From: Chloroflexota bacterium
Lineage (GTDB): Bacteria; Chloroflexota; Limnocylindria; P2-11E
DNA: 28,782 nt
Reading direction: 5' to 3'
NCBI GenBank assembly: GCA_039934015.1
Contig: JBDTMY010000055.1
Location: 1 to 28,782 of the forward strand
Part shown: positions 14,340-17,750 of the stretch, one piece after another
Numbering within the stretch: position 1 is the stretch's first letter
Layout: each line of letters starts with the position of its first letter
Position numbers and translations under genes: made by a program
The notes under the pieces: generated by a model
Seen by the model: only the letters and a program-made list of their open reading frames with translations
Told to the model about the DNA's origin: nothing
Database searches by the model: none

Positions 14340-15128
14340 GTGATCACCATCCCGTTCGATCCGAACATCCACCTTGGTCCGTTCACGATCGCGTGGCACG
14401 GGATCTTCACCGCGGTCGGCATCCTCTGCGGGGTGTGGCTCCCACTCCGTCTCATTCGTGCGCGCATCTCTGAGGACGACGCGACCGCCGTCGCCACGTG
14501 GGGTGTGGTCGCCGGCATCGTCGGCGCGCGACTCGTTCACGTCATCGACGCCTGGCAGTACTACGTCGCGAACCCGCTGCAGATCCTCCTGATCTGGACG
14601 GGTGGTATCGCTGTGTGGGGTGCAGCGATCTTCGGAACACTTGGCGGTGTGTTCGTCGCGATCCGGCGAGGCTTGCCCATCGGTTTTGGGGCTGATGCGG
14701 CCGCGCCAGGGATCCTTCTGGGCTTCGCGCTCGGCCGGATCGGCGACATCATCAACGGCGAGCATCACGCCACTCCGTGCGAAGCGCCCGTCGGTCTGTG
14801 CGTGGGATTCACGCACCCGGACACGCTCGGCCAGCCTGGGCCCGTGCACCTGGTCGTCGCGTACGACATGGCGTGGAACCTGATCGGGGTCGCCGGATCG
14901 CTGGCCCTCCGCGGCCGTGGTCTGCCTGAGGGACTGATCTTCTGGCTCGCGGGCGCCTGGTACGCGGTGGGCCGCTTCTTCCTCGGCTTCCTGCGCACCG
15001 TCGACCCCACGTACGCCTTCGGCCTGCGCGAGGACCAGGTCATCGCGATCCTCGTTCTCGCGGCGGCGATCCCCATGATCGCCCGCCTCACCATGTTCGG
15101 TCGCGCGCCGGAGCCGGTAGCGATCTGA
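14340..15128 (+). CDS. lgt: Prolipoprotein diacylglyceryl transferase-like protein, paralog 1 (divergent)
   Basis: IAWHG, GIVGARL, IWTGG, LGRIGDIINGE, GRFFLGFLR. Confidence 0.85.
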   Translation: MITIPFDPNIHLGPFTIAWHGIFTAVGILCGVWLPLRLIRARISEDDATAVATWGVVAGIVGARLVHVIDAWQYYVANPLQILLIWTGGIAVWGAAIFGTLGGVFVAIRRGLPIGFGADAAAPGILLGFALGRIGDIINGEHHATPCEAPVGLCVGFTHPDTLGQPGPVHLVVAYDMAWNLIGVAGSLALRGRGLPEGLIFWLAGAWYAVGRFFLGFLRTVDPTYAFGLREDQVIAILVLAAAIPMIARLTMFGRAPEPVAI

Positions 15129-15961
15129 TCGAGCTGCCGTTCGACCCGGATCTGGTGATCGGATCATTTCGCATCGCGTGGCACTCGGTCTTCGCCTTCG
15201 TGGGCCTGGCGGTCGGCAGCATCGTCTCGATCCGCTGCGCGCGCTACCTGATACGCGACGAGCGGGTCTATCCCTTCGCCATTGCCGTCGTTCTGGGCGG
15301 ACTCATCGGCGCGCGGATCGCTCACGTCACGGATAACTGGGCGCTCTATGCGAACGATCCGCTGCGCGCGCTTCAGTTCTGGAGCGGGGGCATCGGCACG
15401 ATGGGCGCGCCGATCGGCTCGACGGTCTCGGGCTATCTCGCCGCGCGCTGGCTTCGCCTGCCGGTCGGCTTCATGTTCGACGTCACGGTCATCGGCATCG
15501 CGCTCGGTGAGGCGATCGGCCGCATCGGCGACATCGTCAACGGCGAGCATCACTCCGTGCCATGCGCGGACCTGCCGTGGTGCGTCCGCTACACGCACCC
15601 GGACACCCTGGGACAGGCGACGTCGGTCCATCCGATCGGTGTCTACGACGGCCTGCTGATGCTTGCGATCTTCGCCGTGGTCTACCTGTACTGGCGGCGC
15701 ATCCGGGGGCGCCCGCCCGAGGCCCGCGTTTGGTTTGCCTACCTGCTGCTCCTCGGCGGGGGCCGGTTCCTCCTGTCCTTCCTGCGGACCGACCCGCTGT
15801 TCTTCGGGGGGCTCCAGCAGGCCCAGCTTCTCGGGCTCCTCTATTTGGGCGCTGGAGCGGTCACTTTGCCTCTGCTGGAGCGCCGAGCAGCCTGGTTAGC
15901 GAACGTGCCGCAAGCACAAAATGGGGAAAAACCCCTTCTCAAACCGGTGTCAGACCGGTAA
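15125..15961 (+). CDS. lgt: Lgt-like protein, paralog 2 (probable CTG start)
   Basis: GGLIGARI, FWSGG, IGRIGDIVNGE, GRFLLSFLR; N-terminus aligns with paralog 1 from CTG 15125; the ORF track starts at GTG 15155. Confidence 0.85.
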   Translation: MIELPFDPDLVIGSFRIAWHSVFAFVGLAVGSIVSIRCARYLIRDERVYPFAIAVVLGGLIGARIAHVTDNWALYANDPLRALQFWSGGIGTMGAPIGSTVSGYLAARWLRLPVGFMFDVTVIGIALGEAIGRIGDIVNGEHHSVPCADLPWCVRYTHPDTLGQATSVHPIGVYDGLLMLAIFAVVYLYWRRIRGRPPEARVWFAYLLLLGGGRFLLSFLRTDPLFFGGLQQAQLLGLLYLGAGAVTLPLLERRAAWLANVPQAQNGEKPLLKPVSDR

Positions 15962-16006
15962 ACTCGCGTCCGGAAAGCGGCACAAAAGCCGCCTGTGGGG
16001 AGCGTC

Positions 16007-16204
16007 ATGAAAGAGTGGATCGTCTGCGAGGACAACTGCCTTAAGTGTTCCTACGGGGCGACCCTCGACTGCGACGGAGACTGCCCTCGCTGCCCTCGTA
16101 ACACCTATTGCCCCTGCGTGACCTTTGTCAGCTTCGCCGCAGGCAAGCTGGCACCAGTCGCTCAGCCCCTCACGACCACTTTCGAACGACCCCGCAAGCG
16201 CTGA
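16007..16204 (+). CDS. Small Cys-rich protein (65 aa, 8 Cys)
   Basis: GGGGAG SD before ATG; MKEWIVCEDNCLKCSYGATLDCDGDCPRCPRNTYCPC...; fills the gap between lgt2 and prfB. Confidence 0.7.
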   Translation: MKEWIVCEDNCLKCSYGATLDCDGDCPRCPRNTYCPCVTFVSFAAGKLAPVAQPLTTTFERPRKR

Positions 16205-16210
16205 ACCGTC

Positions 16211-17315
16211 GTGACGGTGGACCTGGCGGCGCTCGCCGCTCTGCGCGAGCGCATCGACCGCATGGCGGTGTTCCTTTGACCTCCCCACTCTTCGCCGCGA
16301 GGTCGCGCGTCTAGACGCGGAGTCCTCCGCGCCCGACCTCTGGAACGATCGCAAGCACGCGCAGCAGGTCATGAAGCGACTGGGCCTCATCCGTGCGCGT
16401 GTCGACCGCTGGGAGTCCTTTCGCCAGCGTGCGGCTGACCTCACGGAGCTGGCCTCGCTGGCCGATGACCCCGCGCTCAGCGCCGATCTCGAGCGCGAGC
16501 TGCAGCAGCTCGTGGCCGATGTCGACAAGGCGAGCCTCGAGGCGCAGCTGGGCGGTCCGTACGACGAGCGCGACGCGGTCGTCGCGATCTCGGCCGGCGT
16601 CGGTGGGACGGACGCCGCGGACTGGGCCCAGACGCTCGTGCGCATGTATCTGCGGTGGGCCGAGCGGCACGGTTTCAAAGCGGAGATCGTCGAGTCGACG
16701 CCCGGCGACGAGGCGGGCATCCGCAGCGCGACGATCACGGTCGAGGGTCCCTACGCGTACGGATATCTCAAGACCGAGCGCGGCACGCATCGGCTGGTGC
16801 GCATTTCCCCGTTCGATTTCCAGAAGCGGCGACAGACGTCATTCGCGCTGGTCGATCCGACCCCGCAGGTCGAGGACGACGCCGAGATCGAGATCCGCCC
16901 AGAGGAGCTCAAGATCGACACCTACCGCGCCACCGGTGCCGGTGGCCAGAACGTCAACAAGACGGAGACCGCTATACGCATCACGCATCTGCCGAGCGGC
17001 ATCGTCGTCTCTTGCCAGAATGAGCGCTCGCAGCTGCAGAACCGTGAGACCGCGATGCGCATCCTCAAAGCGAGACTCCTGGAGAAGCGCGTTCTGGAGC
17101 AGGAGGCCGAGCAGGCACGCGAGCGTGGCGAGATGCGCTCCGCCGACTGGGGCAGCCAGATCCGCTCGTACGTCCTCCACCCCTACACCCTGGTCAAGGA
17201 TCACCGGACCGGCGTCGAGGTCGGAGACCCAACGCGAGTCCTCGATGGGGACATCGACGTGTTCATCGAGGCTGCCCTGTCTAGGCCAACCGCCGGTGGC
17301 ACACCGCCTGCTTAG
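16211..17315 (+). CDS. prfB: Peptide chain release factor 2 with programmed +1 frameshift (about 367 aa)
   Basis: GTG 16211, 22 codons to CTT TGA C (16274-16280), continuing DLPTLRREV...DLWND; SPF and GGQ motifs. Confidence 0.97.
16264..16280 (+). promoter_or_regulatory. prfB +1 frameshift cassette
   Basis: GGCGGTG-TTC-CTTTGAC. Confidence 0.92.
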
Positions 17316-17369
17316 TAACGACCCGTAAACGCCATGGGCGCCGAGGGCGCACCCGCGGGAGGTTGTTTT

Positions 17370-17750
17370 ATGGTCAGCGCAAAGGATCTGAGGGATGTCT
17401 TCGAGGACATCCGCAGCGAAGCGGGCAAGCGGGCATCTGACTTCATGAGTGACGCCAAGATGCCCGACATCAGCAAGATGCCGGACATCGGTCGGCGCAA
17501 CGAGCCTTCCGGGATCGTCTGGCTGAGTCTTGGCCTGGTGCTCGGAGCGGTCGTCGGTATGGCGATCGCGCTCATCGCGGCGCCGTATCCGGGCGTCGAG
17601 ACCCGTCGGCGTCTTGGCCAGCAGGTGGACAAGATGAAGCGACAGGGCGAGGACCAGATCGAGCAGATCCGCACCTCGAGCGCGTCGAAGAGTGACAACG
17701 GCGGAACGCCGGGCTACACCACTCCCACCACCGCGTACGAGCGTAGCTAG
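17370..17750 (+). CDS. YtxH domain protein
   Basis: GGGAGG SD before ATG 17370; GLVLGAVVGMAIALIAAPYPGVETRRRL; tandem MPDISK/MPDIGR. Confidence 0.75.
   Translation: MVSAKDLRDVFEDIRSEAGKRASDFMSDAKMPDISKMPDIGRRNEPSGIVWLSLGLVLGAVVGMAIALIAAPYPGVETRRRLGQQVDKMKRQGEDQIEQIRTSSASKSDNGGTPGYTTPTTAYERS

Follow-up and report, generated by a model that had tools for sequence, protein, structure and literature searches.

Synthesis of release factor 2 (RF2) is the textbook case of autoregulation by programmed frameshifting. RF2 is also recruited to stalled ribosomes by the lineage-specific small proteins ArfA and BrfA; to our knowledge, the known rescue factors contain no Cys cluster. In coupled cistrons with ATGA, TGATG, or GTGA junctions, the upstream stop codon lies near a weak downstream start that often lacks a Shine-Dalgarno (SD) sequence. 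Among metal sites with C/H-x3-C-x2-C spacing, the HxxxCxxC of the ZAS anti-sigma factors and the zinc loop of Rpb3 (C-x-C-x3-C-x2-C) ligate Zn, the spacing providing three ligands and the fourth coming from elsewhere. Dense Cys residues, Cys-Pro pairs, and an acidic domain are traits shared by small Fe-S proteins. A small product encoded at prfB is already known in the form of the ORF0 peptide, e.g., the 26-aa peptide of Synechocystis (bioRxiv 10.64898/2025.12.20.695498). Our literature search found no paper on a conserved protein-coding cistron coupled ahead of prfB and none describing the protein analyzed here.

In the window, i.e., the whole analyzed stretch of 28,782 nucleotides, a 65-aa protein with eight Cys residues, termed Cys8, is encoded directly upstream of prfB (gene order on the + strand: secA, lgt, lgt, Cys8 ORF, prfB, YtxH-like gene). 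As in other coupled cistrons, its stop codon is close to a weak, SD-less start; unlike in these, the downstream gene is already autoregulated by a +1 frameshift. Cys8 resembles ArfA and BrfA in being small, taxonomically restricted, and linked genetically or perhaps functionally to RF2, but has no sequence similarity to them and shows no sign of regulation via a non-stop mRNA. The x3/x2 Cys spacing is that of Rpb3 and the ZAS proteins; however, no homology to Rpb3 or zf-HC2 was detected, the triad occurs twice in Cys8 with a C-P-C pair closing the arrangement, and no sigma gene is adjacent. Cys8 shares with the 2[4Fe-4S] ferredoxins its small size, its acidic character, the number of eight Cys, and the Cys-Pro pairs, whereas its C-x3-C-x2-C spacing differs from their C-x2-C-x2-C-x3-C-P, all eight Cys fall within 31 residues, and no Fer4 match was obtained. 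The probable overall explanation is that Cys8 is a genuine gene whose product carries a metal center and that forms a two-cistron unit with prfB.

The Cys8 gene and its conservation

The features of the gene and of its junction with prfB are as follows.

15997-16002, + strand: Shine-Dalgarno sequence GGGGAG, 4 nt 5' of the ATG (like motif in homologues)
16007-16204, + strand: Cys8 mini-protein gene, 65 aa, ATG to TGA (translation, homologues)
16025-16117, + strand: Cys8 core from C7 to C37, C-x3-C-x2-C-x7-C-x3-C-x2-C-x5-C-x-C (invariant columns of alignment A1)
16205-16210, + strand: 6-nt spacer ACCGTC separating the Cys8 stop from the prfB start (not constant in sequence within the genus)
16211-16279, + strand: prfB ORF0, GTG start at 16211, 22 codons, then TGA (in frame with the Cys8 ORF here)
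16274-16280, + strand: +1 frameshift site CTT TGA C of the classical RF2 type (read from the DNA)
16278-17315, + strand: main (+1) frame of prfB, encoding RF2 (tblastn across relatives, whole-phylum search)

Translation of 16007-16204 on the + strand gave MKEWIVCEDNCLKCSYGATLDCDGDCPRCPRNTYCPCVTFVSFAAGKLAPVAQPLTTTFERPRKR, followed by the stop codon. Its length, the Cys residues at positions 7, 11, 14, 22, 26, 29, 35, and 37, and the tail RPRKR agreed exactly with a preliminary description of the locus; of the span given there (16007-16210), the start was retained, whereas the ORF including its stop ends at 16204 and the remainder is the 6-nt spacer. The Cys domain extends from residue 7 to residue 37, whereas the remaining 28 residues up to the C terminus are free of Cys. 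With 12.3%, the Cys content greatly differs from that of the neighboring proteins (0.3-1.1%). The lower GC content reported for this stretch was real but mild (0.615 for the Cys8 ORF versus 0.667 for the window, with a GC3 of still 0.75), and is due to the amino acid composition. The gene has its own SD, as previously described, and a GGGAG/GAGGAG SD-like motif at comparable spacing was present in nearly all homologues.

Gene callers assign a longer ORF of 85-106 aa to relatives; this version was rejected because the N-terminal extensions are mutually unrelated, and the sequence is constant from M/V-K-E-W onward. In close relatives, in-frame stops occur 5-6 codons 5' of the Cys8 start, and a 1-nt indel in an upstream hairpin loop causes the frame to differ between genus members. 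Thus, with extensions that are not conserved, in-frame stops upstream, and a frame-shifting indel, ATG 16007 is the start codon.

Sixteen full-length sequences spanning the subgroups of the family were aligned (alignment A1). Invariant positions were I5, C7, E8, C11, C14, S15, Y16, L20, C22, D23, G24, C26, C29, Y34, C35, P36, C37, V38, and R61, and the family signature reads I-x-C-E-x-[DN]-C-x2-C-S-Y-x3-L-x-C-D-G-[ND]-C-x2-C-[PT]-x3-Y-C-P-C-V. Since all eight Cys are invariant across these sequences, the pattern is not due to chance. In 11 genomes of the same order, dN/dS was 0.027 for the entire Cys8 ORF, with values of 0.006 in codons 2-40 and 0.06 in the tail; pairwise differences amounted to 14-32 synonymous versus 1-10 nonsynonymous changes, and the Ser15 codon had changed from TCC to AGC in one lineage. 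Amino acid sequence identity of Cys8 homologues was 91-98% within the order, and 39-45% (full length) or 47-61% (Cys domain) to other families of the class. Cys8 was more strongly conserved than RF2 of the same genomes, with 98 versus 86-93% identity within the genus and, in other comparisons, 95 versus 77% and 91 versus 67%.

A scan of metagenome contigs revealed at least 407 Cys8 relatives among the 600 pattern matches listed. Among these listed matches, the 65-codon gene occurred in soil metagenomes as 65 distinct alleles, which encoded 18 proteins; residues 2-51 were invariant in the 65 alleles save for two singletons (D23N and T33S), with two to five synonymous forms at almost every codon. 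Also among the matches listed, W4, Y16, Y34, F40, and F43 were conserved in this order, and the tail was frozen within it. The Cys8 ORF is a genuine coding gene under extreme purifying selection at the protein level, which bears out the initial assignment as a real small protein with a conserved Cys pattern.

The gene was present in 39 of 41 sampled relatives, a tally that takes in one unpublished genome (G022) on which no conclusion depends; of the two genomes without the gene, G004 has a contig end immediately 5' of prfB, which accounts for the miss. A profile search of a 401-genome sample of the phylum detected Cys8 in every sampled member of three families within the class (2/2, 23/23, and 16/16) and in none of the four genomes, 1.1-1.4 Mb in size, of a small-genome family; outside the class, a single weak match was obtained. 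A fifth family was represented by two genomes, solely in the search of relatives; one gave a clear match, and the other, with a completeness of 64%, a match at chance level (E 0.08). In other families, the protein has a length of 74 aa or, where a Pro-rich linker is present at the N terminus, of 97-110 aa. It begins with V/M-K-Q, preceded by an SD of the GAGGAG type, and its tail lacks Cys but differs in sequence, ending in ...GRN or ...RGRS; the basic tail is confined to the order represented here.

Among 1.84 billion representative proteins, profile searching yielded 57 matches, all with the signatures of these subgroups, and the long sequences among them were frameshifted or misassembled read-throughs. 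In a collection of 5.8 billion proteins, 32 close homologues were found, every named one being a 'hypothetical protein' and the sole taxon label being 'Candidatus Limnocylindria'. One member of the cluster of another subgroup is filed as 'Candidatus Saccharimonadales', probably owing to a binning or labeling error. Cys8 is a previously undescribed small-protein family essentially confined to one class of Chloroflexota. A 2026 paper divides that class into four clades, of which the freshwater Limnocylindraceae are genome-reduced (PMC13212565); the small-genome family without the Cys8 gene fits this description and may represent that clade. The family is new, easily recognized, and abundant in soil metagenomes, and with 65 residues Cys8 lends itself to direct biochemistry.

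The junction of Cys8 with prfB

The TGA stop of the Cys8 ORF at 16202-16204 is followed by ACCGTC and the GTG start of prfB at 16211, and no SD-like sequence was found ahead of this GTG, just as the preliminary description had it. The assignment of the GTG is supported by a relative (L002) that has an ATG at the equivalent position. Synteny, proposed earlier as a check, proved complete: prfB directly followed the Cys8 ORF in 24 of 24 genome loci, with secA further upstream. In all 36 tabulated loci, a candidate start of prfB fell within −11 to +9 nt, counted from the initial base of the Cys8 stop. The junctions are of many types, TGA-N6-GTG in this genus and TGAATG, TGA-N3-TTG, TAG-N2-GTG, TAGTG, TAGGTG, or a TTG that precedes a TAA or TAG stop by 11 nt elsewhere. 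Among the metagenome matches listed, the Cys8 stop preceded CTT TGA by 59-88 nt in 78 of 79 loci, and the stop codons of 79 close relatives were TAG (47), TGA (25), and TAA (7), most junctions being out of frame. In other classes of Chloroflexota, where frameshifted prfB is present, no comparable Cys-rich ORF preceded prfB in any of 24 loci. The persistent juxtaposition of the Cys8 stop and the prfB start is firmly established, and the fact that the junction was reshaped repeatedly while the stop was kept beside the prfB start argues that the arrangement is under selection and not simply inherited.

A role of the UGA stop as a conserved signal was considered and rejected, because the RF2-specific UGA and the frame shared with prfB are traits of a subclade only. 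In this order, where the prfB start lacks an SD, one hidden in the RPRKR tail was likewise dismissed, since the codons of the tail vary synonymously. RNA folding at the junction was no better than that of shuffled sequences (z = 0.04).

From this comparison we infer that prfB probably depends on the Cys8 ORF for translation initiation, which extends the tentative proposal of translational coupling to RF2 made initially to the 36 loci and their junction turnover. Such dependence is suggested by the missing SD ahead of the GTG in this genus. The Cys8 ORF would head a translational unit of two cistrons, and ribosomes terminating at its stop would re-initiate at the adjacent weak start of prfB (GTG, TTG, or ATG; SD-less in this genus). 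Synthesis of RF2 would then be gated first by translation of Cys8 and second by the RF2-dependent +1 frameshift. Against this reading counts that close gene spacing is common in operons; moreover, a possible SD (GAGG) precedes the prfB start in one other family, so coupling need not be obligatory everywhere. If entry via Cys8 were obligatory, it would represent a second layer of control above the frameshift autoregulation of RF2. In the subclade with the RF2-specific UGA and the shared ORF0 frame, low RF2 could in addition allow read-through to Cys8-RF2 fusions.

Such read-through products would resemble those encoded constitutively by natural stop-loss variants. In two contigs from independent assemblies (L074:189-458 and L075:104-373), which differ upstream and in their start codon, TGT replaces the Cys8 stop, and Cys8 reads in frame via CGG-ATG into prfB ORF0 to end at the TGA of the frameshift site; a +1 shift there would yield a Cys8-RF2 fusion. 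A third contig of low coverage (L076:112-339) carries TTA at the stop position and an internal deletion of approximately residues 10-27, with loss of five Cys; it could represent either a copy in decay or an assembly error.

The small-genome family (L039-L042) illustrates the locus without the gene, with secA followed after ~80 nt by prfB with CTT TGA C. As this family keeps frameshifted prfB, RF2 expression does not strictly need the Cys8 gene. In three of its four genomes, GAGGG precedes the prfB GTG. Short open frames (16-18 codons) either terminate 3 nt ahead of this GTG or overlap it (GTGA); they were rejected as remnants of Cys8, their similarity being no better than that of shuffled controls. 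A loss of the prfB frameshift in this family was also rejected, because the DNA shows that CTT TGA C is retained.

Upstream of the frameshift site in the window, GGCGGTG precedes CTT TGA C after a 3-nt spacer (16257-16280), at the place that the stimulatory SD-like element occupies in E. coli. GGCGGTG was also found before the frameshift site in one other family, and GGGG at the same place in two others.

Nature and possible role of the Cys8 protein

Scans of Cys8 against Pfam and NCBIfam (both E ≤ 10) and against PHROGs (permissive threshold) gave no match, and a profile search of PDB sequences gave nothing significant. A clear hit to a known zinc-finger family, named beforehand as an observation that would speak against the initial reading, was thus found in none of these collections. 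The top PDB match was the zinc loop of yeast Rpb3, in which CEDHCDKCS resembles CEDNCLKCS of Cys8 in one triad; at an E value of 0.33, this match only shows that x3/x2 Cys spacing can bind zinc. The ESM Atlas contained only the unnamed Chloroflexota clusters of Cys8 itself, the nearest named entry (Ral, score 0.76) being at chance level. Structure prediction, also suggested at the outset, was run with AlphaFold2 on 16 and 41 sequences, but the models, computed with no metal, reached a pLDDT of only 47 and 50; a metal-dependent fold would explain these low values, while the failure itself proves nothing. Membership in the SmtA-type bacterial metallothioneins is contradicted by the lack of a Pfam match and by the five conserved aromatic residues, and membership in the ZAS anti-sigma factors by the lack of a zf-HC2 match in Pfam and by neighbors (lgt and prfB) that include no sigma gene.

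The eight invariant Cys most likely form a compact metal center. By analogy of Cys spacing, two Zn(Cys)4 sites are somewhat favored over Fe-S, each site consisting of one C-x3-C-x2-C triad and one Cys of the C-P-C pair; alternatively, one or two Fe-S clusters would be bound. CxxxCxxC, pointed out early on as the spacing of radical-SAM ligands, is not diagnostic of clusters of that type.

The sole match outside the class was the N terminus of a 321-aa protein with ParB_N and helix-turn-helix domains from another Chloroflexota family.

L037:313-1275, − strand: ParB_N + helix-turn-helix protein P0082 (context in L043)

In an hhalign comparison of Cys8 with this N terminus (probability 96%, E 4.8e-9), all eight Cys aligned, as did the flanking segments Y-x-D-L-[IV]-x-C and N-P...R-L-x-E. 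The gene is a singleton in databases, and its unannotated neighbors look like a mobile element or prophage. The alignment points to the Cys8 unit as a separate module, one that can be joined to a nucleic acid-binding protein.

Several explanations rival the overall one given above. Cys8 could be a small Fe-S protein, ferredoxin-like or redox-sensing and unrelated to termination, that was fixed early in the class as an operon passenger. We regard this as unlikely on balance, though with some weight: eight Cys within 31 residues, the pairs C29-P30 and C35-P36, and the acidic Cys domain would all suit such a protein, whereas its spacing is CxxxCxxC instead of the canonical CxxCxxCxxxCP, no Fe-S family of Pfam, Fer4 included, matched at E ≤ 10, and the repeatedly reshaped junction with the stop always beside the prfB start is not expected of a passenger. 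RF2 and the reduced-genome family lend the passenger reading further support. No column or indel of RF2 separates lineages with the Cys8 gene from those without, so co-evolution lends no support to a physical partnership, and this lack of a signature, together with loss of the gene but not of prfB in the reduced-genome family, argues that the Cys8 protein is at least dispensable. Even as an unrelated metalloprotein, Cys8 would represent a clean, conserved coupled cistron, albeit of modest interest.

The stop-loss fusions and the apparent coupling hint at an action of the Cys8 protein on RF2 or the ribosome. In its fullest form, Cys8 would respond to metal or redox state and serve, specifically in this class, as a partner of RF2 or the terminating ribosome, with its ORF as the obligatory entry to prfB; taken jointly, these assumptions make a doubtful proposition. 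A near-frozen gene in front of prfB in a whole bacterial class points to either an added layer of control or an as-yet undescribed accessory factor of termination.

An RF2 adaptor analogous, not homologous, to ArfA and BrfA, or a modulator of RF2 activity made in proportion to it, appears improbable. Small size, restriction to one lineage, synthesis tied to RF2, the basic C-terminal tail in this order, and the natural in-frame fusions to prfB ORF0 would fit; however, no Pfam match was obtained, the basic tail is not conserved in other families, the gene ends with an ordinary stop codon in contrast to the non-stop-mRNA arrangement of arfA and brfA, and RF2 lacks a co-varying feature. Very improbable is a purely regulatory upstream ORF, such as a leader peptide sensing cysteine supply, whose translation rather than product would matter. 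Eight Cys codons in 65 and the tight coupling to the downstream gene recall such leaders, but I5, E8, S15, Y16, L20, D23, G24, Y34, P36, and V38 are as invariant as the Cys, the tail is frozen in the order, and the Cys8 domain is also fused to the ParB-like protein; constraint at the protein level with free synonymous change makes a leader peptide unexpected. Finally, a ranthipeptide- or SCIFF-like RiPP precursor, suggested by a Cys-rich small peptide, is the least likely reading, already called less likely in the preliminary description, because NCBIfam, which presumably includes the SCIFF model, gave nothing at E ≤ 10, no radical SAM maturase (PF04055) was detected on the contig or in the conserved secA/prfB neighborhood (with lgt in this order), and the Cys-rich part is N-terminal, not a C-terminal core, in a protein conserved over its whole length. 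The 68%-complete assembly contains three radical SAM domains, all on other contigs.

Upstream block and neighboring genes

Three features were noted upstream of the Cys8 start codon, where the second lgt gene (lgt2) ends.

15913-16006, + strand: upstream block, nearly invariant nucleotides in eight genomes of the genus (alignment)
15936-15941 and 15959-15964, + strand: candidate promoter TTCTCA-N17-TAAACT, overlapping the lgt2 stop (our reading)
15977-15981 and 15988-15992, + strand: small hairpin GCGGC/GCCGC with loop ACAAAA

The block overlaps the last codons of lgt2 and contains other small hairpins (GGGG-AAAAA-CCCC and ACCGGT-GTCAG-ACCGGT). It had no Rfam match, and a covariation check of 15913-16006 revealed no covariation. 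Its interpretation as an N-terminal extension of Cys8 was rejected because of the frame shift caused by the 1-nt indel in the hairpin loop. A promoter scan tool found none at its threshold upstream of the Cys8 ORF. Soil RNA runs contain contigs of relatives that span the Cys8 ORF and the 5' end of prfB; these fall short of proving transcription, since sequence conservation and possible DNA carry-over are confounding factors.

The tandem lgt paralogues (14340-15961), which share ~42% identity, separate secA from Cys8 in this order alone; one other family of the class has the Cys8 ORF ~110 nt behind secA. The gene after prfB (17334-17747) encodes a YtxH-like protein (PF12732, E 1e-11).
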